Origin: a virus | Taxonomy: Duplodnaviria; Heunggongvirae; Uroviricota; Caudoviricetes | Virus record (IMG/VR): IMGVR_UViG_2740892218_000001 | Span: 1 to 20,634 of that record | DNA: 20,634 nt | Direction: 5' to 3' (one strand) | Program-made: the position numbers and the translations under genes | Part shown: positions 288 to 20,634 of the stretch, one piece after another | How positions within the stretch are numbered: position 1 is the stretch's first letter | Layout of the letters: each line of letters begins with the position of its first letter | Notes under the pieces: generated by a model | What the model was told of the DNA's origin: nothing | What the model saw: the letters and a program-made list of their open reading frames with translations, nothing else | Databases searched by the model: none

Positions 288-355
288 GTTGGTTTTTCTC
301 CACGGATTTACTGACAACCGAAGCCCTGACTGTTCCCGCAGTTGGGGCTTCAACT

Positions 356-859: not shown

Positions 860-869
860 AGGTGGGTTT
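845..869 (-). terminator. Stem-loop (aaacccacc / tgaa / ggtgggttt) with a U6 run on the minus-strand transcript; candidate intrinsic terminator between the convergent mnt and YafO-like genes
   Basis: Perfect 9-bp inverted repeat at 848-856 / 861-869 with a 4-nt loop; on the minus strand it is followed by TTTTTT (845-850). The mnt stop codon sits in the loop. On the plus strand no U-run follows. Confidence 0.45.
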
Positions 870-1317
870 AGTCAAACATAGTGTTTCTAAAGTCTCTCGC
901 ATACCCTGCCAACACTCTCATTCTATTATGATTGTTAGCAGACATGTGAGCTACAGGATGAAAAAGAGCAATCAATGAATACCTGTTCTCATCAAAAAGA
1001 TTTTGTGCATAAACGAGAGCGGTATTGGAAGTTTTATGCCACTGCAACTTTTGCGGTGTGCTGATATCTGTGCCTTTTTTTATTGGCTCAAATTTATTTT
1101 CACCAATTGCTAAATGAAGGTGCATAAGGCCTGCATCTTCAATATCAGGAGGTCGATGATAAGAGGTGTCTCTGCCAAAATAGCTGGGCAACGTTCCCGT
1201 AGACTTGTAGATGATAAAATCATCTACAAGTGTTTGTTTTAAATCAGGAAACTCAACAAAAACCGGGGAGAAAAAATAGTCAAAACTATCCTGATTATAT
1301 TCCACGGTTACTTGCAT
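868..1317 (-). CDS. YafO-family toxin homolog (type II TA toxin family; ribosome-dependent mRNA interferase in E. coli YafO), 149 aa
   Basis: Translation carries the motifs DFIIYKSTGTLPSYFGRD, HLHLA, LVYAQNLFDE...LIALFHP...NNHNRMR, which align with E. coli YafO (DFISYKRDGVLPDIFGRD, HIHLA, LVYCQGAFDE...LIAILKP...DNNQMHK) as recalled from memory. GAGG RBS 5 nt upstream of ATG; AT-rich relative to the structural genes. Confidence 0.65.
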   Translation of the reverse strand: MQVTVEYNQDSFDYFFSPVFVEFPDLKQTLVDDFIIYKSTGTLPSYFGRDTSYHRPPDIEDAGLMHLHLAIGENKFEPIKKGTDISTPQKLQWHKTSNTALVYAQNLFDENRYSLIALFHPVAHMSANNHNRMRVLAGYARDFRNTMFD

Positions 1318-1325
1318 GTTTTACC

Positions 1326-1892
1326 TCAGTGGAAGTTACCAGAGTGAAACACACGAGTCCCGTGCTCAGCAAGCGCACGCAAACCAGCCATATCTACGGA
1401 ACTATCAAAAACAACCGGAACACATGAGCGTTGTTTAATAAGACTATTCAGGTTAGTTACGGCAGATCTAGCATCAGCAACAACGATATAGATATCTCTT
1501 GCGATCTCTTTAAAATCAGCAGAAGCTTCTTTGAATACCGATTTCATTGCCCCTTCAAGTCCTCTCAATTGATGCTCTATCAATCGAGATTTTTCTGGTT
1601 CAATGATAGACAACACATTGTCTACATTTTCATCGGTAGCGTTTGCAAGAACACGATAAGCATATTTCAGCATTCGAGACAATTCTTTAATCGAAGACAC
1701 CGCCTCATGAAGCTCATCATTGGTCCGTTCACTGCTGAGCGAGGATTGATGGTAAGCGTGCTGAACATTATCAGTGACAACCACCTCACAACTGAACGCA
1801 GAAGCTTGCTGTAATAGCAAACCTATTGCGACCCCAGCTTTGGCAGTGTTCAAGCTAAACATTTCATCAATCCCATTAGTCTCATTGCTCAT
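1326..1892 (-). CDS. Hypothetical 188-aa protein, upstream partner of the YafO-like toxin; no family recognised
   Basis: ATG at 1892 (MSNETNGIDEMF...) preceded by AAGGAGG with a 5-nt spacer; the track's TTG start at 1922 would include that RBS. Its TGA stop lies inside the RBS of the downstream toxin gene (8-nt gap), indicating translational coupling. Contains an R-x4-H motif (RALAEH) near the C-terminus. Confidence 0.6.
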   Translation of the reverse strand: MSNETNGIDEMFSLNTAKAGVAIGLLLQQASAFSCEVVVTDNVQHAYHQSSLSSERTNDELHEAVSSIKELSRMLKYAYRVLANATDENVDNVLSIIEPEKSRLIEHQLRGLEGAMKSVFKEASADFKEIARDIYIVVADARSAVTNLNSLIKQRSCVPVVFDSSVDMAGLRALAEHGTRVFHSGNFH

Positions 1893-1918
1893 ACAAACCT
1901 CCTTCTTATCGGAGATTA

Positions 1919-1959
1919 TCAATAGCTATGCATCTATTGAATACACGCTATGCTCAATA
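1919..1959. promoter_or_regulatory. Candidate operator: TCAATAG-N8-CTATTGA inverted repeat centred on ATGCAT, plus a third TCAATA half-site and a GCTATGC direct repeat
   Basis: Read directly: tcaatag (1919-1925) / ctattga (1934-1940), tcaata (1954-1959), gctatgc at 1925-1931 and 1947-1953; sits 27-67 bp upstream of the 188-aa gene start in the divergent intergenic region. Confidence 0.3.
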
Positions 1960-6477: not shown

Positions 6478-6933
6478 CTATCTCCCGTGATTCAGGAAGT
6501 CGATTAGTTCTTCGCGTGTGGCGCTGTAAAAAGTCACGTCATCCACGCCTTTAAAGTATTTCTTGATGGTTCCGACACGCTTAAGGCCAATCATTGCGCA
6601 GTAAATCTGCCCGTGGCGGAATTTGCGTGCGGCGAACGATGTGACGCACTGAACGGTGGTGTTAGTCAGAATGTATCGCCAGAACGCCAGCCCGATTTCC
6701 TTGCTGAAGCCACGAACCTCTGGCAGGTACATGGCGTGGCAATCGAATGTCAGCGGCTGAATCTCCTGATAGTAAACAATGCCGCCAAACTGACCGTACA
6801 CGTTAACCTCAAAGTAACGGCATTCAGGCTTGTAGTCGTATCCATCACCGTTGTTGCTTCCGGCGATAATGTCTGGGTGATTTCCCACGGCTTCTATCAG
6901 GTCGATGTTTCGCGTTGGTTTGAACTGAATCAT
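6478..6933 (-). CDS. P22 gp14-like protein, 151 aa
   Basis: Located between needle and gp7-like genes exactly as gene 14 in P22; start abuts the needle stop. Confidence 0.6.
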   Translation of the reverse strand: MIQFKPTRNIDLIEAVGNHPDIIAGSNNGDGYDYKPECRYFEVNVYGQFGGIVYYQEIQPLTFDCHAMYLPEVRGFSKEIGLAFWRYILTNTTVQCVTSFAARKFRHGQIYCAMIGLKRVGTIKKYFKGVDDVTFYSATREELIDFLNHGR

Positions 6934-7781
6934 TACTGCTCCGCGATTATCTTGATGGTTGTGGCAGTAAACGCCGCACCATTTGACTGGATGGTTAACG
7001 TACTGCCATTTGTGGCAAGAAAGCCGTCTTTATCCACGCTGAAAAACGTAGCTAACAGGATGTTATCGGTTGTTGTCGCCGCATTACGACTGCTGACCAA
7101 CGTGTCAGGAACAGAGCCGGAAAAGGTTAGCTGCATTGACCTGTTGGCGGTTCCGCTGGGCCACGTCCCGACGATCGACAGCTTGAAGAACAAGGTTTTG
7201 TTCTCGTTGAACACAACCATCTTGTTGTTAACGGTGTCGAAGAATGGTGCCAACGTGCCGGATGACGGCGTGAGCGTTTTCAGCAGGCTAACAAGGTTAG
7301 TAGGCGCTGTCGGGATGGTTACAGATACGCCAGAGTAAACAACCTCTGACTTCTTGCGAGTAGTGGCATACTCAAGAGCATCGATGCGCGTTTCATGGTC
7401 TGAAACCTGCGACTCCAGCGACTGAACTCTGGTATCAAGCGACGAAATATCGCTTTCATTCTGAGCTATTCGTGTTTCATGTTCCTGAAGAGTTGATTCT
7501 GCCTGGCTGATTCGCTCCTCATGATTAACAAGCGTTGCTTCCGCAGCAGAAATTCGCTGCTCATGGTCAGCGAGAATCACATCCTGCTCATCGTTCCTGA
7601 CTTGTGCGTCATAAGCGCCCTGTCCGGCCTCGTTGGCCTTGTTCGCCACGTTACCAACATCAGTGCCCTGCGCGATAACGTAAAGCAGATATGACTGCGA
7701 GAAGATATTGCGTGGAAGAACTGATGTGTCGAGCCGCGTAGCCTGGATGATTACCGGCACATTGAGATTCGAATCCGCCAT
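6933..7781 (-). CDS. Tail needle (gp26-like) with a C-terminal knob extension, 282 aa
   Basis: N-terminus [43 protein letters not shown]... matches the P22 gp26 N-terminus as recalled; central repeats ([36 protein letters not shown]) indicate a trimeric coiled coil; about 110 beta-rich C-terminal residues are absent from the 233-aa P22 needle and resemble the Sf6/HK620-type knob. Confidence 0.8.
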
Positions 7782-11254: not shown

Positions 11255-11321
11255 ATATTGAATACCTTACTTTCTTTATGTGCTATACTATTGTTATATC
11301 AACATATAGCGCATTAGGGTT

Positions 11322-11843
11322 ATGAGCATGGAACTGAATGAATACTTCGAATACCGCGATGGTTCTTTGGTTTGGAAAGCCAGAAGCTCTGAGTTTTTCA
11401 ACAACAAAAAGAATCGCAACTATCACAACGTTTGGAATGCAAAACACGCTGGGAAAGTTGCTGGTCTTTTAGAAAGCAATGGATATATCCGCATAAGAAT
11501 TAACGGCATTAAGTGGCTAGCACACCGCATCGTATGGGTAATGTTTAACGGAGATATTCCAGAAGGCATGGAAATTGACCATATAAATGGGATTCGCCAC
11601 GACAACAGAATTGAAAATCTTCGTCTTGTGAAAAAATCAGCAAACCAAAGGAATAGAATCAAACTATCTAAAAATAACTCCAGCGGAATATCTGGAGTTT
11701 ACTTTTGCAACACGCGGAAAAGATGGATCGCTCATAAGCGACTGCTTAATGCAAGAGTGCAAAAAGTATGTTCTTCATTCGAAGAGGCGAAAGAAGTAAT
11801 CAGAAAGTTTGACGAGGAAAACAACATCACGATATCGAAATAA
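11322..11843 (+). CDS. HNH homing endonuclease with C-terminal AP2-type DNA-binding domain (free-standing HEG), 173 aa
   Basis: HNH motif region EIDHINGIRHDNRIENLRLVKKSANQRN and AP2-like segment SGISGVYFCNTRKRWIAHKRL; AT-rich; opposite strand to the whole structural operon; stop codon abuts the scaffold stop. Alternative start ATG at 11328 has better spacing to AGGG. Confidence 0.75.
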   Translation: MSMELNEYFEYRDGSLVWKARSSEFFNNKKNRNYHNVWNAKHAGKVAGLLESNGYIRIRINGIKWLAHRIVWVMFNGDIPEGMEIDHINGIRHDNRIENLRLVKKSANQRNRIKLSKNNSSGISGVYFCNTRKRWIAHKRLLNARVQKVCSSFEEAKEVIRKFDEENNITISK

Positions 11844-12768: not shown

Positions 12769-14937
12769 TTATTGAGGTGTCTCGGCTACTCCGCCGGAGG
12801 GGATTTGAACTTGACGCATAAGATTCGCGAAATCCATGCGTTGTGAATGAGTCTGGTCTGCATCTTTAAGAAGCAGCTCAGCGTTAGCACGAGCATCTTT
12901 GCTGCGCTGTTGCTGGAATTGACCTACGAGCTTGAGGTACTCACGCAGTTCTGCCTGCTTATCAAGGTCCATATTGTTGAAGATTTCTGCAATCTTCGCG
13001 GCGTTGAGTTGGTTTTGGGCTTCAACCTTGGCGGCTTCAACCTGAATCTGCGCCTGTTGGTTCTCTGCCTTGAGCAATTCAGCCTGACCTTGCAGAAGGA
13101 TGCCCTGCGCCTGAATTTGCTCTGCTGATGGCTGCTGCGGCTGCTGTTGAGCCTGCTGTACCATCTCCATCTCTTCAGGTGTTTCTGGTTTCTTCAGCCC
13201 CATCATCACCAGTTGCTTGTTCGCGTACTCTCGCATCATCTCGACGCCTTTACCGTCAAGCAGCGTGAAGTATTGCAGCATCAGCATCTGGAACTCTGGA
13301 GTACCTTGCGGAACCTTGGTTAGCAACTCCTGAATCTCTGCGCGATTCTGTTCCTTCATGCTCTGGAAGGATGGTCCGACGTCTGTATAGCACTCATAGC
13401 GACCGCGAATATCGTTGAGTGTGACCACATTGCCAGACTGGTAATCTACAACTTGCGCATAGAGTTGAACGTCTTTCTCGCTTCCATCTTCAAGTGTCAG
13501 CGTTACATGACGAGGAACGTCATAAATATCGTTGACCATTGAGGCATAAATCTCGCCATCACGTCGCATTGCGGTAGCCAGGTTATCCTGAAACACGTAT
13601 GTCTCAAGGTCTGCCCGCATGTTCAGTTGATTGACGGTATCGAAAGCGACCTGAGAGTTTGCTGCCTGCGCATCCACACCAAGACTAGCCACCTCTTTCA
13701 CTGCGTTGGTGGCAGCCTCAAGCATGTAAGCGTTGGCTTGCGGCACTTCAGGGTTTTCCATGTAGGAGATTGGACCAATCGGCAGGTCGTTGCCGTTTTC
13801 ATCGGTCCTGTTCTGCAGATAGTACGGATAGTCATCATTTCCACCGTACATGTATTCGTAGCCTTCGATTTGCTCAGGGAAGAAGGTCGGTTTCTTCTTC
13901 GGTGAACGAGCAACAATATCGGCGTTGAATGACATGATCATGTTACGAAGGCGTTGACCGTCTTTCGTCAGCCTTACCACTCCTTCGTAGCACTCCTTGT
14001 CACCAGCGAATGACCATTCGCCATACACTGGAACGATTGGAATATGCTCTCCGGCTATCTTCTCGCGGTCTTTCAGTATCTGCGTGCAGGTGATGATCGA
14101 CTTATACACACGCCGACGCTTCACCTTGCGCTCTGCTACCTTAATGAATCCACGATTAGCCAGGTCGTCGATGACGTCTTTGATATCCTGCTGGTAATAG
14201 CTGACCGGCTCACCTGTCAGCGGGTCGCGGTAGATGAAGACTTTCTCCTTCTTCTCTTCTACCTCGTAATACTCAGCGACGTAGACGACATCATTCGATA
14301 CCCACGGAAACAGCCATGTGTCGTTCGGATTCTGGAAAGATGGCAGGGTGTCAGGATCAATACCGTAATCCTCTGCGAACTCTTTCCAGCCATTGCGCGA
14401 CAAGGCGTTAATCACCGTGCAATGCTTAGCGTCGCTCTTATCCATCTGCTTGCTGTTTGCGTCCCATATGACGTGTGAGCAGGCTTCATGGATTGGCAGG
14501 CGTCGGATTACCTGATTGTTGCTTGTTGGATCGTTGTCTTCGTACTGCGTGACCAGACGCCATGCACCAACGCCAGACTCTATCTGCTCACGAACGCCAA
14601 CGTTAACAGCAATCTTTGCCGTGTTATGGCGCATATCAGTACGATACATTCCCATCAACACATCGGCAGCATCAGGATTAGCGCCGTCTTTTGGTCTGAA
14701 TAGAACGTCGATAGGGTTCCGGCGCATCTCTGCGACCAGTTTCCTGACCACCGGGCGAACAACATCGAATTGTCCGCGATATTGCAGGGTGGTGTAGTTT
14801 GATAGCCAGTCATCCCATTGCGACACTCGGCTAAAATACAGGTCATTTGTCGCCTCGGTTCTGGCCTCATCGCTTGCTGCCCAATCCCTGTCAAACCGAA
14901 GGAGAATGGTTCGCAATTTGTCGTCTTGGTCGGCCAT
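12769..14937 (-). CDS. Portal protein, P22 gp1-like, 722 aa
   Basis: N-terminus [67 protein letters not shown]... closely parallels P22 portal as recalled; size (P22 725 aa) and Gln-rich C-terminal helix region fit. Confidence 0.92.
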
Positions 14938-16397
14938 TATCTACCTCTGGAAATTGGACGAATTGGAGCCGGTAATGGCTTAGTTGGTTTGTTTTTGACT
15001 ACCGGGAATGCAAACGTCAGGGCTAACGCATCAGCGCGGTTTGGTGAAGGAACCCCACGGCGCTTCATGTCATCTTTGGCCTCAAGGACGATGCGCCCAT
15101 CGAGCTTAACCCTGTACTCAGGAGCAACGATTTCGTCAGCTGTTTGCTGATCATCGATACTTCCCCCTTCTTTGAGCCATGACTTCATTGAGTTCCACAT
15201 CTCACCGCGCTTGTTCAGCATGCCGGGGTCTTTGGATTCACCCCCAAAGTTAACCAGCTGCCACTTCCTTCCCCACGACCTACCTATTGAGTGAATTCCG
15301 GTGCCATACCCGAAGTCTATGAACACTGCATCTGCCTTATGCTCATCCTCAAATCCTGCGACGATTTGCGCGAACTTAACGTCGTCATCTGTTTTCGGGT
15401 AGGTGCCAAGCAGGCGCGCATGAAGACCCTGGCGAAGGTAAATTGATGCCTCATCACTACCTGTGTAAGCAGGGTCAACGCCGATTATTTTGGATGCGAA
15501 TGTGTAAGAGCCGGGCTCAAGCGTGCGAGACATGGCCTCATCCACATATGCCTGAGGTATGAACTGGACTTCTGATGTCGATGGGAATAGACCGCGAACA
15601 CGTACTTTAAAGAAGTCGCTGTCTTCACCGTAATCCTTGCGCCACTCTTCGATGAGCTCTTTGTTGGTCATCTTTGCCAGGCGGCTATCAATTTGACGTC
15701 GACGCCATCGGTGTTTGAACTTGCGGAAGCACTCTCGGAATCGACCGGTGTTACGCGTCGGGTTCCCAAATGCAAACCAGAAAGGCTCGCCGTCAGTAAG
15801 GCCGCCCTCTGCTACTTCCCAAATTTTGTCAGGAACCGCTGAGGCTTCATCGAAGATGTAGAACGGGCTTGAGTTAGCTGCATGCAGGCCAGCAAATGAC
15901 TCGCTGTTCTCTTCCCGACACGTCTGGCCGTCACAGCGCCATGATTCCATGTGATCCACATGGTAGATGTTCATGTTGCCTTTGCCGTTGTTGTACTCAA
16001 ACCAGTGACCGGTGATGCACCGCTTCTTCCACTTGCCCAGCTCGCCCCATGTTTTGGTGCGAAGCTGTTCAGAGGTATTAGCTGTCACGACGCCCTTGCA
16101 GAAAGGACGAGTGCTGAGGATGTACAGAATGACCCAGGCAGTTAGAGCACTTTTACCGATACCGTGACCAGAGCTGGTAGCGCAACGATAGGCTTCAACA
16201 GGTTTAACACCGTCGAAGTTATTAGTCCTGATTGCGTCTCCCCAATCTGTCAGAAACTCTTTCTGCCATTCATCGGGGCCGTCAAAGCCATCAAGCTCAC
16301 CAGTTCCCCAATCAAACGCATACATAACGAAGCCAAGCGGATCGTAAAAGAATCGACCCATATCATCGGCAAGCATTGCCTCGAATTCTGACGACAT
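14937..16397 (-). CDS. Terminase large subunit, 486 aa
   Basis: Position upstream of portal with TAATG overlap; Walker A-like GHGIGKS segment; size typical of P22/Sf6-type TerL. Confidence 0.88.
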
Positions 16398-16834
16398 TAC
16401 TCACCTCTCGCGCGTTTTCTGGCCTCCTGAATGCGCTGAATCAGGTTAACCTCTCCGGTGTGTTCAACTTCTTGCTTATCGCGCCATTTATCCTTCTGTC
16501 GGTTCTTAAGCCAGAAAATGGCAGCGGTTGTATCAGGCGGGTAATACTTCTCAAGCGGAGTTTCGACAATTCTGTTTTCAATAACACGAATATCGATGTC
16601 TGGAGCCACGAAGCCCATAGCGCGTTGATAAAGACGATCACTAACTTCTGCATCAGCGACGGCCTTACCCTTTTTTATGGACTCCGAAAACTTAGGATAA
16701 TCAAGCTTCCACTTGTTAATAGTTGACTCACTGACTTCGAAGAAATCAGCAAGCTCTGCGTCTGTATAGCCCAGCAAGCACAGTTTGCGTGCCTGTTCGG
16801 CGTACGCCTCTTGATACTTTGTTGGGCGCGCCAT
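16397..16834 (-). CDS. Terminase small subunit (HTH-type, Sf6 gp1-like), 145 aa
   Basis: Immediately upstream of TerL with TAATG overlap; N-terminal HTH-like region (LGYTDAELADFFEVSESTINKWK) resembles Sf6-type small terminases as recalled; not P22 gp3-like. Confidence 0.7.
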   Translation of the reverse strand: MARPTKYQEAYAEQARKLCLLGYTDAELADFFEVSESTINKWKLDYPKFSESIKKGKAVADAEVSDRLYQRAMGFVAPDIDIRVIENRIVETPLEKYYPPDTTAAIFWLKNRQKDKWRDKQEVEHTGEVNLIQRIQEARKRARGE

Positions 16835-16836
16835 GT

Positions 16837-17079
16837 TTATGCTCCGGTAGTGAACAGGTCTAACGCTTCCTTCGATTTACGCACCGCTTCGATAGTGCGG
16901 GTCGTGATATCTGAATTAGCGCCGCCTGACTGGAAGTGAATTTTGAATAGCTCAAGCTTCAACTCGTCAGTGCCGATGAATTGAAATGCTTCCTCTGCGG
17001 CTGCGTTCTGGTTCATGACCAGTTTGTAAATCTCTAACTGGAATTTCTGTTCTTCAGTCATGGGAATAATCTCTGCCAT
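16837..17079 (-). CDS. Small hypothetical protein, 80 aa (position of P22 orf80)
   Basis: GGAG RBS upstream of ATG at 17079; tightly packed upstream of terS; same size and position as P22 orf80 as recalled. Confidence 0.5.
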   Translation of the reverse strand: MAEIIPMTEEQKFQLEIYKLVMNQNAAAEEAFQFIGTDELKLELFKIHFQSGGANSDITTRTIEAVRKSKEALDLFTTGA

Positions 17080-17114
17080 TGTTGGCTCCGTTTATCCGTT
17101 AAAAGGGATATCAG

Positions 17115-17408
17115 TTAAGTTATCCCGTGTAGGGTATAAGCCATTATCAAGCCCACCAGTAGATGGGCTTTGTAATGGAGAGCCGTTGTGAAAGTGGCTC
17201 TCAGACTGTCATTTTTTCCCTTTCTGTTTACCTGCCCACTGTTTTGCAATGTACAGGCAGTCATCGAAAATTCGGCCTTTTCTGCTGGCTTGTGAACAAC
17301 GGCGAGTTCCACCGCCATGTCAGCGCCAGTCATAGCCGCGTTTTGGTCGTATCCAAACTTTATTAACTCGGTTGTTACATTTTTATGTATGAAATCAATC
17401 GGAGTCAT
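17115..17408 (-). CDS. Hypothetical protein, 97 aa
   Basis: Start overlaps the upstream gene stop as ATGA (17405-17408), suggesting translational coupling; no recognisable domain. Confidence 0.4.
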   Translation of the reverse strand: MTPIDFIHKNVTTELIKFGYDQNAAMTGADMAVELAVVHKPAEKAEFSMTACTLQNSGQVNRKGKNDSLRATFTTALHYKAHLLVGLIMAYTLHGIT

Positions 17409-18001
17409 GCTGGTTTACCATCAGGGAAATCCCCCATGTCACATAGCTTGAACTGAATCAGATCCTTCACAAGCTGCTCAGCCTTTTTAATGGCCTTCTT
17501 CTCTTTCTTCCGACGAGTCATGAGAGCGCTACCTGCTTGACCGTGCATTTCAAATGAGAACTTCTCAGCAGCCGCGACACGGTTTTGCATTTCGCTGATT
17601 GCCATATCGGTCAGGCCAGAGAAATCGAGAAGGTTAATGTCCTTCCCCCCCTCAAGCTCAGTCATGTGGTCATACACCTGCGCCTGAAGCTCATAGCTGT
17701 AGCTCATTGCCATGAGGCAAGCTTCACGCTTGGGAAAATTGTAAATATCCCTCTCCACAACACCACCTGTTCCGTTGATATAGGTATCAGTTGCAAAAAA
17801 TTTTGCAGCTGCATCCCCGAGGACCTTGGGTACTTTCTTCATGAAACTGCGGTGTTCGAGTTTGCGATATTTCTTACAGGGGAACGCAAGCCCCTCCGCC
17901 TCCGCTTTGGATTTCCGATCAGCATTAATGTAATCCACCATCTCAAGACTGCTCATGGTCGGGTATTCGCCAGAAGGAAGAACGGTTAATGATTTGTTCA
18001 T
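17405..18001 (-). CDS. Hypothetical protein, 198 aa, possibly Rha-like regulatory protein (position of P22 orf201/rha)
   Basis: AAGGAA RBS 8 nt upstream of ATG at 18001; position between lysis cassette and terminase genes matches P22 orf201 as recalled; family assignment is from position and size only, not a confident motif match. Confidence 0.4.
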   Translation of the reverse strand: MNKSLTVLPSGEYPTMSSLEMVDYINADRKSKAEAEGLAFPCKKYRKLEHRSFMKKVPKVLGDAAAKFFATDTYINGTGGVVERDIYNFPKREACLMAMSYSYELQAQVYDHMTELEGGKDINLLDFSGLTDMAISEMQNRVAAAEKFSFEMHGQAGSALMTRRKKEKKAIKKAEQLVKDLIQFKLCDMGDFPDGKPA

Positions 18002-18146
18002 GTCGGTATTTCCTTTAGAAAGTTGAGCCTGTTCGCACAGAAAAGCCGTCCCCGAGAGGTCCTCACCTATACGGCAGTTCTCAGGCTCAGCTTTCTGAAA
18101 GACTCGGGATTGTTACGCGCTGCGATACGCTGTGAAATTCAGATGT

Positions 18147-18171
18147 AAAAAAAGCCCCGCATCGCGAGGCT
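18147..18171 (-). terminator. Candidate intrinsic terminator downstream of Rz (AGCCUCGC-GAU-GCGGGGCU followed by U7)
   Basis: 8-bp stem with one mismatch, 3-nt loop, then TTTTTTT on the minus strand (plus-strand A-run 18147-18153). Confidence 0.45.
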
Positions 18172-18202
18172 CATTAAATTGACTTTGTGATTTGCAAAAA
18201 AA

Positions 18203-18640
18203 TTATTTCAGGCATTGCGTCCTGATGTATTCCTGCAGGTAGTTAACCTGCGCGGTTATCCTGTCGATTCCACTTCGGAGACGGTAATAATTGAGTTCAG
18301 CATCTGCTGTAAGTCTTGGGCTTTCTCCATCGCCCATGCCGCTGGCTCCGGTCGTTGACTTTGCACAGGTGGCGGCGACTTGCAGGCGCTTACGACCAGC
18401 AGAAACATCAGCACGGAGACTTTCGATAGTCGCGTTAGCATCAGCAAGCTCCTTTGTATATCTGGCATCGAGTTCTGCTACATCACGTTGACGCTTCTGC
18501 ATATCAGCGATTGTGGATGTGGCCTTATCGCGCTGCTCTTTGTAGGTAATGGCGTTATCACGGTAATGATTAACAGCCCATGACAGGCAGACGATGATGC
18601 AGATAACCAGAGCGGAGATAATCGCGGTGACTCTGCTCAT
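18203..18640 (-). CDS. Rz: Spanin inner-membrane subunit Rz (i-spanin), 145 aa
   Basis: [34 protein letters not shown] matches the lambda Rz N-terminus as recalled, then diverges; ATGA overlap with the R stop. Confidence 0.85.
18256..18441 (-). CDS. Rz1: Spanin outer-membrane lipoprotein Rz1 (o-spanin), embedded in the +1 frame of Rz, about 61 aa
   Basis: Internal ATG at 18441 preceded by AAGGAG with a 7-nt spacer; [20 protein letters not shown] gives a lipoprotein signal with lipobox-like VSAC; mature part is Pro-rich ([16 protein letters not shown]), as typical for Rz1. Confidence 0.65.
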
Positions 18641-19113
18641 ACCTCAATCTCTCTGACCGTCCCGCCCGCTTCTTTGAATTTTGCAATCAGGCTGTCAGCC
18701 TTATGCTCGAACTGACCATAACCAGCCCCCGGCAGTGAAGCCCAGATATTGCTGCAACGGTCAATTGCCTGACGGATATCACCGCGATCAATCATCGGTA
18801 AAGCGCCACGCTCTTTAATCTGCTGCAATGCCACAGCGTCCTGGCTTTTCGGAGAGAAGTCTTTCAGGCCAAGTTGCTTACGATAGGCATCCCACCAACG
18901 GGAAAGAAGCTGGTAACGTCCGGCGGCTGTTGATTTGAGCTTTGGGTTTAGCGTGACAAGTTTGCGAGGGTGATCGGAGTAATCAGTGAATAGCTCTCCG
19001 CCAACAATGACGTCATAACCATGATTTCTGGTTTTCTGTCGTCCGTTATCAGTTCCCTCTGACCACGCCAGCATATCGAGGAACGCCTTACGTTGATTAT
19101 TGATTTCCACCAT
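18637..19113 (-). CDS. R: Endolysin R (lytic transglycosylase), 158 aa
   Basis: [62 protein letters not shown]... is near-identical to lambda R as recalled. Confidence 0.95.
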
Positions 19114-19420
19114 CTTCTACTCCGGCTTTTTTAGCAGCGAAGCGTTTGATAAGCGAACCAATCGAGTCAGTACCGATGTAGCCGATGAACACGCTCGTTA
19201 TATAAGCGAGATTGCTACTTAGTCCGGCGAAGTCGAGAAGGTCACGAATGAACCAGGCGATAATGGCGCACATCGTTGCGTCGATTACTGTTTTTGTAAA
19301 CGCACCGCCATTATATCTGCCGCGAAGGTACGCCATTGCAAACGCAAGGATTGCCCCGATGCCTTGTTCCTTTGCCGCGAGAATGGCGGCTAACAGGTCA
19401 TGTTTTTCTGGCATCTTCAT
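19097..19420 (-). CDS. S: Holin S (class I) with dual-start motif, 107 aa
   Basis: [62 protein letters not shown]... is near-identical to lambda S as recalled; Met1-Lys2-Met3 dual start and the upstream sdi hairpin (CCCCTTATTGGGG, plus 19424-19436) are present. Confidence 0.95.
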
Positions 19421-19662
19421 GTCTTACCCCCAATAAGGGGATTTGCTCTATTTAATTAGGAATAAGGTCGATTACTGATAGAACAAATCCAGGCTACTGT
19501 GTTTAGTAATCAGATTTGTTCGTGACCGATATGCACGGGCAAAACGGCAGGAGGTTGTTAGCGCAACCTCATGCCACCCGCTTTCACGAAGGTCATGTGT
19601 AGAAGGCCGCAGCATAACTATCACTGATGAATTCAGGATAGCCAGTGGCTACGGCTCAGTTA

Positions 19663-19738
19663 TGGTGCTGGTTAACGGACTTGAACCGCTACCCATTCGC
19701 TTACAAGGCGACTGCTCTACCATTGGAGCTAAACCAGC
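19663..19738 (-). tRNA. tRNA-Thr (anticodon UGU), 76 nt with encoded CCA
   Basis: Folded by hand from the minus strand: perfect 7-bp acceptor stem (GCTGGTT/AACCAGC), U8, 4-bp D stem (GCTC/GAGC) with a GG-containing loop, anticodon loop CTTGTAA, T-arm AGCGG-TTCAAGT-CCGTT, discriminator A, CCA. Confidence 0.75.
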
Positions 19739-19743
19739 ATGTT

Positions 19744-19818
19744 TGGCGGGGCAGCGTGGACTCGAACCACGATAAGAAGGTTAACAGCCTTCCGTAATGA
19801 CCTTTATACGACTGACCC
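19744..19818 (-). tRNA. tRNA-Asn-like (anticodon GUU), atypical and possibly a pseudo-tRNA, 75 nt
   Basis: Perfect anticodon stem (GAAGG/CCTTC) with loop CTGTTAA and perfect T-arm (CGTGG-TTCGAGT-CCACG); anticodon and T loops match E. coli tRNA-Asn as recalled; but one U-C mismatch in the acceptor stem and only a 3-bp D stem. Confidence 0.5.
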
Positions 19819-19822
19819 AAAT

Positions 19823-19864
19823 AAAAAAAGCCACCGTTGCAACTTAAGAGTCACTAACGGCAGC
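19823..19864 (-). terminator. Candidate tR'-like terminator of the short late leader transcript (hairpin followed by U7)
   Basis: Minus strand GCUGCCGUU...AACGGUGGC pairs over 9 bp (two G-U pairs) around a 17-nt loop containing a CTTAAG palindrome, followed by TTTTTTT; lies about 35-75 nt downstream of a TTGACA hexamer at 19898-19903. Confidence 0.35.
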
Positions 19865-19909
19865 TTATGCGAATAGTGTTGCTCATTTGCTCAATGATGT
19901 CAACACGTT

Positions 19910-20398
19910 CTATGCTACATGTTTAATTTTCTCTACACGTTTCCGGTTTTTAAACGCACTATCCAGAACCGGGTAAATCATAAACAACGAAGCATTGAGG
20001 ATTTCGTCAACTTCCCGGCGACAGGTTGCGAGCGATGGTTTTTGAATACGCCCGCCGCCCCGGCATAACATCTTGCGAGGTCTTGCGACACGATGATAGT
20101 AAGATGCAATGGCATGCTTGGAAGATCCATGAGCGTAGTAGCTGAGGAGGATGCCAAAGGCTTTCTTGTCAATGTACATGACGGAATCGACGACCTGAGA
20201 AATCAACATTCCATCATCATCATTACACATTGGCCTTGTCATAACTCTTCCCGGCTCTACGCTCTCCATGAACTTCGCTATTACGCTGCTCATGCGCTTT
20301 TCCAGACGACCTGAATAAACCCATGCGCCCCACAGTTCAAGCCAGCCATTCAGCCAATCGTGCTGTTCTTTGGTGAGGTTTAGTTCTCTTATGCCCAT
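19910..20398 (-). CDS. Q: Late-gene antitermination protein Q (Q21/933W-type family), 162 aa
   Basis: Position immediately upstream of tRNAs and the S-R-Rz cassette; N-terminal LELWGAWV segment resembles the ERWGAW motif of 933W/phage 21 Q as recalled; GGGAGAA RBS upstream of ATG. Confidence 0.7.
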   Translation of the reverse strand: MGIRELNLTKEQHDWLNGWLELWGAWVYSGRLEKRMSSVIAKFMESVEPGRVMTRPMCNDDDGMLISQVVDSVMYIDKKAFGILLSYYAHGSSKHAIASYYHRVARPRKMLCRGGGRIQKPSLATCRREVDEILNASLFMIYPVLDSAFKNRKRVEKIKHVA

Positions 20399-20440
20399 GC
20401 GACTTCTCCCTTGTTATCTGGAATGTTTTTTACTGAGAAC

Positions 20441-20634
20441 GTCATGCGGCCTCACTTCTGCTATTTCGCAGGTCTTTGAGTTTCTGTTGGTACTCTGCCT
20501 TGATCGCCTTGCACTCTTCGATAGTCCAGCGATGGCGGTTATGGTTTGATTCGATTTCGTCTACTGCTTCCTGCCCGATGCGGTTAATCAGTTCGACGCG
20601 ATACGGAACGAGATTTCCGCTTTTGTGCTGGTTG
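20441..20634 (-). CDS. Partial CDS (C-terminal 64 codons; start lies beyond the window end), unknown nin-region-type protein
   Basis: Open minus-strand frame to the window edge ending at TGA 20441-20443: ...[63 protein letters not shown]; not in the ORF track because it has no in-window start. Confidence 0.35.

Follow-up and report, generated by a model that had tools for sequence, protein, structure and literature searches.

A phage 21-type late-gene switch joined to a lambda-type lysis cassette with a hybrid spanin in a P22-like temperate phage

We analysed a 20,634-nucleotide stretch of DNA, hereafter the window, which is given as IMG/VR virus record IMGVR_UViG_2740892218_000001 (Caudoviricetes). 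The interval 18203-20398 extends exactly from the stop codon of Rz to the start codon of Q, with all genes on the minus strand, and in it a P22-like temperate phage carries its late-gene switch and its cassette for host lysis. The features of this interval and of its upstream flank are the following.

20442-20634, minus strand: 3' end of ninG (rap), truncated where the window stops; the frame ends with RNSRSEAA and a stop codon
20389-20445, minus strand: ninH' remnant, in which 10 codons of ninH are joined to 8 unrelated ones, overlapping the start of Q
19910-20398, minus strand: late-gene antiterminator Q, phage 21 allele, 162 aa, assigned by similarity to PDB entries 6JNX and 6P18
20073-20105, plus strand: putative paQ-like antisense promoter within Q, by homology to the phage 21 annotation
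19875-19903, minus strand: late promoter PR', with the -35 element TTGACA at 19898-19903 and the -10 element at 19875-19880
19868, minus strand: late transcript start, by phage 21 identity
19861-19867, minus strand: sigma-dependent pause element, by phage 21 identity
19819-19866, minus strand: intrinsic terminator tR', by phage 21 identity
19744-19818, minus strand: tRNA-Asn (GTT), ARAGORN; Rfam RF00005, 54.2 bits
19663-19738, minus strand: tRNA-Thr (TGT), ARAGORN; Rfam RF00005, 61.5 bits
19601-19661, minus strand: 61-bp phage 21/lambda crossover zone directly 3' of tRNA-Thr, common to phage 21, lambda, and Sf6
19097-19420, minus strand: holin/antiholin S (S107; S105 start at 19414, dual-start MKM), by lambda S identity and PF05106
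18637-19113, minus strand: endolysin R, lambda-type transglycosylase with Glu19 present, by lambda R identity and PDB 1AM7
18203-18640, minus strand: hybrid i-spanin Rz, 145 aa (PF03245, E 4e-37)
18537-18548, minus strand: crossover from lambda type to P22 type within Rz, codons 31-35, by informative-site analysis
18256-18441, minus strand: o-spanin Rz1, 61 aa, wholly embedded in the +1 frame of Rz (PF06085, E 2e-20)

The antiterminator is essentially Q21 itself. It is identical to Q21, for which structures have been solved, at 161 of 162 residues (6JNX and 6P18, E 5e-109), and it belongs to PF06530 (E 1e-24; 87 bits against a cut-off of 26), the family named Q21/Q933W by Yin et al. (2019). 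The sequence-only reading of this DNA had described a Q that is neither lambda Q nor the product of P22 gene 23, and we could substantiate this: Q shows 14% identity on alignment to each of lambda Q and P22 gp23, and BLASTP found no similarity to lambda Q (E 4.5). The same reading had called the protein Q21/933W-type, which holds for the family, as both 933W Q and Q21 match PF06530, but not for the allele. Because 933W Q is only 32% identical over 79 aa, the protein is Q21 and not Q933W at the allele level. A 933W-like late region was likewise retained at the family level and rejected at the allele level, the nucleotide matches to 933W being limited to the ninG end and a weak match in Rz. The Q of Sf6 is 85% identical by tblastn (137/162 in a global alignment).

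Feature positions in the regulatory region were transferred from the phage 21 annotation (window position = 59409 minus the phage 21 coordinate). PR', the Q-binding element (QBE), the pause element, and tR' are those of phage 21 base for base in the alignment. Yin et al. (2019) and PMC8022706 define the QBE as two 8-bp subsites arranged as a direct repeat between the -35 and -10 elements of the late promoter. The corresponding sequence ATTGAGCA/AATGAGCA, as given by Yin et al. (2019) and quoted in PMC8022706, lies within PR' at 19880-19895, between its -35 and -10 elements. By sequence, Q has its cognate QBE, with the sigma-dependent pause element and the terminator following downstream, as expected for a member of this class. 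A U run follows the tR' hairpin, whose folding energy is -20.2 kcal/mol (z = -4.56). A generic sigma-70 promoter scan did not detect PR', which was placed by alignment to the phage 21 annotation. Within Q, the putative paQ-like element comprises a CII site, TTGCGAGGTCTTGC, at 20073-20086 and a -10 sequence TAAGAT at 20100-20105, both read from the sequence, and its promoter function is presumed by homology.

Immediately upstream, the ninG end shows 94-100% nucleotide identity to ninG of phage 21, Sf6, IME10, and 933W. The phage 21 record OL657228 carries the same annotated ninH' pseudogene at 38964-39020, and the two sequences stay collinear throughout the remnant. The unrelated codons number eight here, and the phage 21 record counts seven.

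Directly after tR', one base on, follows the pair of tRNA genes (19663-19818), annotated likewise in phage 21 and Sf6 and absent from the gene inventory of the earlier reading. No promoter of their own was recognisable for the two genes. Since they adjoin tR' without a recognisable promoter, both tRNAs may come only from the Q21-antiterminated late transcript, a tentative suggestion to which we give slightly less than even weight; an independent tRNA promoter could exist, and PMC8022706 treats the expression of tRNAs in P22-like phages as unresolved. If the suggestion is true, the supply of tRNA-Asn(GUU) and tRNA-Thr(UGU) would be coupled to the translation of the late genes, in which ACA makes up 25% of the Thr codons and in which 22 of the 23 Asn codons of the coat gene are AAC.

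The lysis genes that follow are of lambda type up to the beginning of Rz. S is identical to lambda S at 106 of 107 residues and to Sf6 S at all 107 (PF05106, E 2e-30), and it starts with MKMPEK, thereby retaining the dual-start motif (Met1-Lys2-Met3) for the antiholin S107 and the holin S105. R is identical to lambda R at 156/158 and to Sf6 R at 155/158 positions. Because Pfam gave no match for R, we confirmed it through PDB, where lambda lysozyme 1AM7 matched with E 2.6e-105, and through PHROGs; the catalytic Glu is found at position 19, as in soluble lambda R-type endolysins. The description of S and R as lambda-type in the sequence-only reading is thus borne out.

Rz is composed of two parts. 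Residues 1-34 are identical to lambda Rz throughout (34/34; P22, 27/34), and residues 35-145 match P22 gene 15 at 106 of 111 positions (lambda, 57/111). The protein as a whole is identical to Sf6 Rz at 140/145 positions. Judged by sequence, Rz is a lambda-type segment of 34 residues, including the membrane anchor, joined to a P22 gene 15-type periplasmic domain, with the transmembrane helix predicted from the 34/34 identity to lambda Rz. The embedded Rz1 carries the lipobox VSAC (LVVSAC) and is identical at 58/61 positions to the embedded frame of P22, at 60/61 to Sf6 Rz1, and at only 23/58 to lambda Rz1. An anchored i-spanin and an embedded lipoprotein o-spanin, as in two-component embedded spanins, are therefore both recognisable. 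That Rz begins lambda-like and then diverges, with an Rz1 unlike that of lambda, had been seen previously; the P22 gene 15 type of the divergent part had not been recognised.

From the near-identity of these parts to experimentally studied proteins and sites, a course of late expression and lysis can be proposed. Q21 would bind its direct-repeat QBE, which in PR' sits between -35 and -10, and load onto RNA polymerase stalled at the sigma-dependent pause element. The Q21-loaded polymerase would then pass tR' and go on to transcribe the tRNA genes, the lysis cassette, and the genes for packaging and the virion. Lysis would presumably follow the lambda route, with S105 as holin and S107 as antiholin determining its timing, R breaking down the peptidoglycan, and the Rz/Rz1 spanin bringing about fusion of the inner with the outer membrane.

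To locate the breakpoints, we combined BLAST matches, an identity plot in 50-nt bins, and informative-site analysis. The window is collinear with phage 21 from 20634 to 19601 (ninG, ninH' remnant, Q, PR', tR', and tRNAs), of lambda type from 19661 to about 18540 (leader, S, R, and codons 1-34 of Rz), and of P22 gene 15 type from about 18540 to 18200 (periplasmic domain of Rz, Rz1). BLAST, the alignment, and the binned identity plot agree that the phage 21 match stops at 19601 and the lambda match starts at 19661. This junction upstream of S was missing from the earlier list of junctions. The other internal junction had been placed near the C-terminus of Rz, which proved incorrect: at sites discriminating lambda from P22, the window agrees with lambda as far as 18548 and with P22 from 18537 onwards, in the N-terminal quarter of Rz. 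The crossover falls within 18524-18571, the equivalent in the window of a stretch annotated in Sf6 as the "bsq7 boundary sequence", and it leaves the periplasmic domain of Rz with its cognate, interacting Rz1. Further breaks lie at 18149-18210 and at about 17176. Both internal crossovers occur where a short segment is conserved between the parental types, which matches the prediction of homologous recombination at boundary sequences. Lambda, phage 21, and P22 are reference types and not the actual donors, and the direction and timing of the exchanges are not recoverable.

Each reference phage shares one part of the interval and departs from it in the others. Phage 21 (OL657228, 38775-39808) shows 97.7% nucleotide identity over 19601-20634, including the ninH' remnant and both tRNAs, but it has the S21 pinholin and the R21 SAR endolysin, unrelated to S and R here (17-23% identity), and lambda-type Rz/Rz1, and it is a siphovirus with cos packaging. 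The S-R-Rz region of lambda (NC_001416, 44945-46235) is 93% identical over 18392-19661, and 96-100% identical up to about 18540, sharing the leader, S, R, and Rz residues 1-34, whereas lambda has an unrelated Q, no tRNAs, and a diverged Rz periplasmic domain and Rz1. P22 shares the body of gene 15 (Rz) with its embedded Rz1, as well as syntenic portal, scaffold, coat, gp10, gp14, and gp7 (72-93% identical), but differs in its lambda-type Q (gp23), its T4-like lysozyme (gp19), its lack of tRNAs, and its terminase (PMC8022706). Q types, lysis cassettes, and tRNA genes vary in just this way among P22-like phages (PMC8022706; PMC2629481).

Sf6 (NC_005344; annotation of Casjens et al., 2004), however, follows the interval as a whole: positions 35471-37673 give one collinear match to 18210-20411 at 94.2% identity. 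The order is the same, with a Q21-family Q, PR', qut, tR', tRNA-Asn, tRNA-Thr, lambda-type S107/S105, R, and a hybrid Rz with a P22-type Rz1. The Sf6 record itself annotates a phage 21-like Q and PR', tRNAs "similar to phage 21", lambda-like S107/S105, R, and Rz, and the boundary sequence bsq7. With gene order, tRNAs, and hybrid Rz in common, the interval might be read as vertical descent from an Sf6-like ancestor without any recombination, the mosaic being an artefact of choosing lambda, P22, and phage 21 as references. We regard this as very unlikely, because in 20134-19835, covering the C-terminal half of Q, PR', and the QBE, identity to Sf6 falls to 66-86% whereas identity to phage 21 stays at 90-100%. 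The Sf6 Q, at 172 aa, has a diverged C-terminal half, the QBE-like repeat of Sf6 is different, and at least one further exchange separates the window from Sf6. Upstream, Sf6 has full ninH and ninI genes in place of the phage 21 ninH' remnant, and downstream of Rz it carries other genes, with its similarity ending at 18210. Discordant topologies of the segments across 18200-20634 are already suggested by the identity plot. The preferred reading thus remains a mosaic produced by recombination.

The region downstream of the lysis cassette leads into the packaging and virion genes and contains the following features.

18152-18172, minus strand: terminator-like hairpin with a T run after the lysis cassette, at a module boundary, from the terminator scan
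17115-18001, minus strand: variable filler between the lysis and packaging genes, with a 198-aa Rha/Ant-like ORF (17405-18001) and a 97-aa ORF (17115-17408)
16837-17079, minus strand: DUF2560 gene, homologue of P22 ORF80 and HK620 hkbM (PF10834, E 1e-43)
16397-16834, minus strand: terminase small subunit TerS, by PHROG match
14937-16397, minus strand: terminase large subunit TerL, by PHROG match

The hairpin (-14.1 kcal/mol, z = -2.1) marks a module boundary where similarity stops at 18210 for Sf6 and at 18149 for IME10. The filler beyond it has no nucleotide match in lambda, phage 21, P22, Sf6, HK620, or IME10, and its PHROG matches, weak ones for the 198-aa ORF, are to anti-repressor and transcriptional regulator families. 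We rejected an assignment of the 198-aa ORF to P22 ORF201 (rha), to which it shows no BLASTP similarity (E 2.0). In IMG/VR contigs, the filler occurs next to the same Rz at about 98% identity. An exact 46-nt pattern from 18101-18146 was found in 12 IMG/VR contigs, none spanning the whole region, and gave no match in the GTDB species representatives. The DUF2560 protein is conserved in P22-like phages and is 96-100% identical to the versions of P22, Sf6, HK620, and IME10.

The terminase, judged by sequence, is of a type different from those of P22, Sf6, HK620, and IME10. TerS gave no tblastn match in the reference phages, neither subunit matched P22 gp3/gp2 at E 1e-3, and TerL aligned with Sf6/HK620 at only 32% identity over 11% of its length (tblastn). 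Over its first 360 nt, TerS has 95-98% identity to TerS of CUS-3, and TerL has 75% nucleotide identity to TerL of Pseudomonas phage Ab31. Homologues of P22 genes 1, 8, 5, 4, 10, 26, 14, 7, 20, and 16 are all present in the P22 order, with virion protein identities of 52-93% to P22 and 41-99% to IME10. Portal, scaffold, and coat are 72-85% identical to P22 at the protein level and show 27-33% identity or no match to Sf6. The earlier phrase "P22-type morphogenesis genes" is accordingly apt for portal, scaffold, and coat but too broad for TerS and TerL, which lack similarity to P22, and for the tail needle, which is Sf6-type. An antisense insertion between scaffold and coat encodes an HNH endonuclease. 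The immI region was correctly called P22-type, being 89% identical to P22 with the sar RNA included.

The ninH' pseudogene upstream of Q and the antisense endonuclease insertion could be taken as marks of a decayed, non-inducible prophage in which the late and lysis genes are functionless relics. This seems improbable to us, given that the late genes from Q to gene 16 are all intact ORFs of the expected length, that viable phage 21 carries a ninH' remnant as well, and that the regulatory sites are those of phage 21.

In E. coli genomes the stretch has matches at a median of 2 places and at 12 at most, and mis-joins at shared segments are therefore conceivable, by which the window would be an assembly chimera of reads from co-resident lambdoid prophages. 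We consider such a chimera exceedingly improbable. Every junction is found independently in the finished phage genomes of Sf6, IME10, HK75, mEp234, and phage 21, and the junctions also occur in hundreds of complete E. coli chromosomes; the join across 17091-18640 is reproduced in IMG/VR contigs. The stretch around the phage 21/lambda junction is covered to at least 80% in 42 phage records, and at the same coverage it is spanned in 533 of 5,426 complete E. coli genomes.

The mosaic proposed in the sequence-only reading is thus real, with pieces matching phages 21, lambda, and P22, since the window is not covered as a whole by any one reference; among phage records IME10 came closest, with 50%, and among complete E. 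coli genomes the highest coverage was 74%. Uniform likeness to one phage, which that reading had named as evidence to the contrary, is absent from the window but does appear within 18203-20398, where Sf6 is collinear at 94%. The mosaic is therefore a catalogued architecture and not peculiar to the window, and its presence in Sf6 and in widespread prophages indicates that it was inherited and not newly formed here. It is lambdoid mosaicism of the textbook kind, already known and ordinary. In the collections searched, the best complete E. coli genome covers 88% of 16300-20634 collinearly, and no one record holds that whole stretch collinearly. The exact combination is therefore unsampled, though each of its junctions is sampled: the set of a phage 21 Q allele, lambda S and R, a hybrid Rz, a Rha-like filler, and a CUS-3/Ab31-like terminase is absent from these collections.

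Taken together, we are highly confident that the late operon of a P22-like (Lederbergvirus-type) temperate phage or prophage, with E. coli or a close relative as host, begins in this interval, and that the interval is assembled from interchangeable lambdoid modules. Its value lies mainly in correct annotation, namely of the Q21 allele with its cognate QBE, the two tRNAs of the late operon, the lambda-type holin and endolysin, and the hybrid spanin. The region is also a clean worked example of lambdoid modular evolution, in which the crossovers lie in short conserved linkers.

The late-control and lysis region occupies positions 18203-20398, and its ends coincide exactly with the Rz stop codon and the Q start codon. 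The minus strand carries all genes of the window, and gene order therefore runs from high to low coordinates.

Features of the late-control and lysis region and its flanks
20442-20634, minus strand, ninG 3' end
20389-20445, minus strand, ninH' remnant of 18 codons
19910-20398, minus strand, Q, 162 aa
19819-19903, minus strand, late promoter region and terminator tR'
19744-19818, minus strand, tRNA-Asn (GTT)
19663-19738, minus strand, tRNA-Thr (TGT)
19421-19662, minus strand, leader of about 240 nt
19097-19420, minus strand, S, 107 aa
18637-19113, minus strand, R, 158 aa
18203-18640, minus strand, Rz, 145 aa
18256-18441, minus strand, Rz1, 61 aa, embedded in Rz
18152-18172, minus strand, terminator-like hairpin
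Within 17177-18148, a 198-aa Rha/Ant-like ORF and a 97-aa ORF
16837-17079, minus strand, DUF2560 gene, kept in all P22-like phages

The Q protein is identical at 161 of 162 residues (E about 1e-109) to phage 21 Q, which has been crystallised and imaged (PDB 6JNX, 6P18). As the sequence-only reading had stated, it is neither lambda Q (no significant BLASTP similarity, E 4.5) nor P22 gp23 (only 14% identity in the alignment). The proposed Q21/933W-type label holds at the level of the family, since Pfam PF06530, a group named "the Q21/Q933W family" (Yin et al., 2019), takes in both proteins; the allele, however, is Q21 itself, with 933W Q reaching 32% identity across 79 residues. The late promoter region matches phage 21 at every aligned base, and we placed its elements through the annotated phage 21 record by a one-to-one map (window = 59409 - phage 21 coordinate).

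Late control elements placed by the phage 21 map
19898-19903, minus strand, -35 TTGACA
19880-19895, minus strand, Q-binding element (QBE), ATTGAGCA/AATGAGCA
19875-19880, minus strand, -10 of the late promoter
19868, minus strand, transcript start
19861-19867, minus strand, sigma-dependent pause element
19819-19866, minus strand, tR'

The tR' hairpin (-20.2 kcal/mol fold, z = -4.56) has a U run, and tRNA-Asn starts one base past tR'. Within Q, a plus-strand CII-type site (TTGCGAGGTCTTGC, 20073-20086) and a -10 TAAGAT (20100-20105, plus strand) correspond to paQ, an antisense promoter, in the phage 21 annotation. At the QBE position, Sf6 (35955-36010, against window 19880-19935) differs in having another tandem repeat, ATTAGCCA/TTTAGCCA-like, and the C-terminal half of its Q has diverged (66-86% nucleotide identity to the window across 20134-19835). 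The Q protein and its DNA site appear to have changed together between Sf6 and the window or phage 21, the same pattern as reported for phage L, whose Q C-terminal half varies in step with its DNA site (PMC8022706).

Identity plots of the window, the check proposed with the sequence-only reading, against lambda, phage 21, P22, Sf6, HK620, IME10, and 933W (BLAST and 50-nt bins) revealed breakpoints both in the interval and beyond it. Positions 20634-19601 are collinear with phage 21 at 97.7% identity, including the ninH' remnant, which the phage 21 record describes as "10 N-term ninH codons fused to 7 other codons". The similarity to phage 21 ends at 19601 and that to lambda begins at 19661, two bases past tRNA-Thr; the 61 bp in between align in lambda, 21, and Sf6 alike and form the crossover zone from phage 21 to lambda. 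This junction and the tRNA genes were absent from the sequence-only reading.

From 19661 to about 18540, the window is 96-100% identical to lambda. As proposed, S and R are of lambda type, with 106/107 and 156/158 identical residues; R also matches the lambda lysozyme structure 1AM7 (E 2.6e-105) and keeps Glu19. The reading of Rz as lambda-like at its N-terminus, then divergent with a different Rz1, was likewise borne out: residues 1-34 are all identical to lambda (34/34), the remainder only at 57 of 111 positions, and Rz1 matches lambda Rz1 at 23/58. The divergent body and Rz1 are specifically of P22 type, as Rz residues 35-145 match P22 gene 15 at 106 of 111 positions and Rz1 the frame within that gene at 58/61. 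At sites that distinguish lambda from P22, the window equals lambda through 18548 and P22 from 18537 on, which places the crossover at Rz codons 31-35, near the N-terminus and not near the C-terminus as had been supposed. The crossover falls in a stretch that hardly differs between lambda and P22 and that corresponds to the "bsq7; boundary sequence" of the Sf6 Rz annotation. The hybrid Rz also occurs, at 96-98% nucleotide identity, in IME10, HK022, HK75, HK446, HK544, mEp234, mEpX1, and many others.

A separate module boundary lies directly past the Rz stop, where similarity to Sf6 ends at 18210, that to IME10 at 18149, and P22 drops to about 70-80%. Positions 17177-18148 have no counterpart in the seven phages compared, nor does the terminase (14937-16834) match any of them. 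The suggested boundary between lysis cassette and terminase thus exists, but as several junctions rather than one. In IMG/VR viral contigs, the block from Rz through the 198-aa and 97-aa ORFs is joined as in window 17091-18640, at about 98% identity. The similarity of several of these contigs stops exactly at 18640, and the R/Rz gene boundary therefore seems to be one more site of repeated exchange.

The immI region (ant 5' end, arc, mnt, and sar RNA; 1-868) is of P22 type, as claimed, with 89% identity to P22; the sar antisense RNA lies at 288-355 (plus strand; Rfam RF00262, 95.6 bits). The assignment of the morphogenesis genes to P22 type stood for portal, scaffold, and coat, whose proteins are 72-85% identical to those of P22 and 98-99% identical to those of IME10 and are not of Sf6 type, but failed for the terminase and the tail needle. 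The 282-aa needle gp26 (6933-7781, minus strand) is Sf6-type at 99% protein identity and matches P22, HK620, and IME10 in its N-terminal half only (51-59%). The terminase (minus strand) is a mosaic in its own right. Over its first 360 nt, TerS shares 95-98% identity with CUS-3 TerS; the remainder of TerS and the whole of TerL lack close phage relatives in the collection searched, and TerL shows 75% nucleotide identity to that of Pseudomonas phage vB_PaeP_Tr60_Ab31.

Scaffold and coat are separated by a 574-bp insertion (11269-11842) that P22 and IME10 lack and that is low in GC (41-44%). It holds an ORF antisense to the late operon that looks like a free-standing homing endonuclease. Two further genes lie between mnt and gene 16, in a variable slot that holds sieA in P22, and may be toxin-antitoxin or exclusion cargo.

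Inserted endonuclease ORF and possible cargo genes
11322-11843, plus strand, HNH_3 endonuclease ORF, 173 aa (PF13392 E 4e-22; phrog_99 E 1e-50)
868-1317, minus strand, YafO-toxin family protein, 149 aa (PF13957 E 3e-22)
1326-1922, minus strand, 198-aa protein (phrog_8416), just upstream of the YafO-family gene

Sf6 gives one 94.2% match collinear with window 18210-20411, and its record annotates every element, noting "similar to phage 21", "similar to phage lambda", and the boundary sequence in Rz. At least 80% of 18100-18640 is covered in 95 phage records. The stretch 19421-20416, across the phage 21/lambda junction, is covered to at least 80% in 42 phage records and in 533 of the 5,426 complete E. 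coli genomes (best match 98.7% identity, full length). P22-like phages have three Q types and several non-homologous holin/lysin types, and Asn/Thr tRNAs are an optional feature of this position (PMC2629481, PMC8022706). Since this arrangement has been described before and is very common, it is not new. For the whole window, no single phage covers >50% and no complete E. coli genome >74%; for 16300-20634, the best coverage in the collections searched is 88%. The exact module combination is unsampled, which is normal for lambdoid prophages. The mosaic itself is real, and its earlier interpretation is largely right once corrected.

Near-identity to studied components suggests the most likely mechanism. 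Q21 would bind the QBE, load on sigma-paused RNA polymerase, and form the described "nozzle" (Yin et al., 2019), so that polymerase would pass tR' and later terminators into the tRNA, lysis, packaging, and virion genes. Late translation may gain from the tRNAs; of the Thr codons in the late genes, 25% are ACA, and 22 of 23 coat Asn codons are AAC. PMC8022706 describes the expression mode of these tRNAs in P22-like phages as unresolved. S105 and S107 would time membrane hole formation, R would cleave peptidoglycan, and the Rz/Rz1 complex would disrupt the outer membrane. Rz and Rz1 contact each other through their periplasmic parts. Because these parts interact, a crossover at about Rz codon 33 would keep a matched P22-type Rz/Rz1 pair, while the lambda-type Rz membrane anchor would stay beside lambda R.
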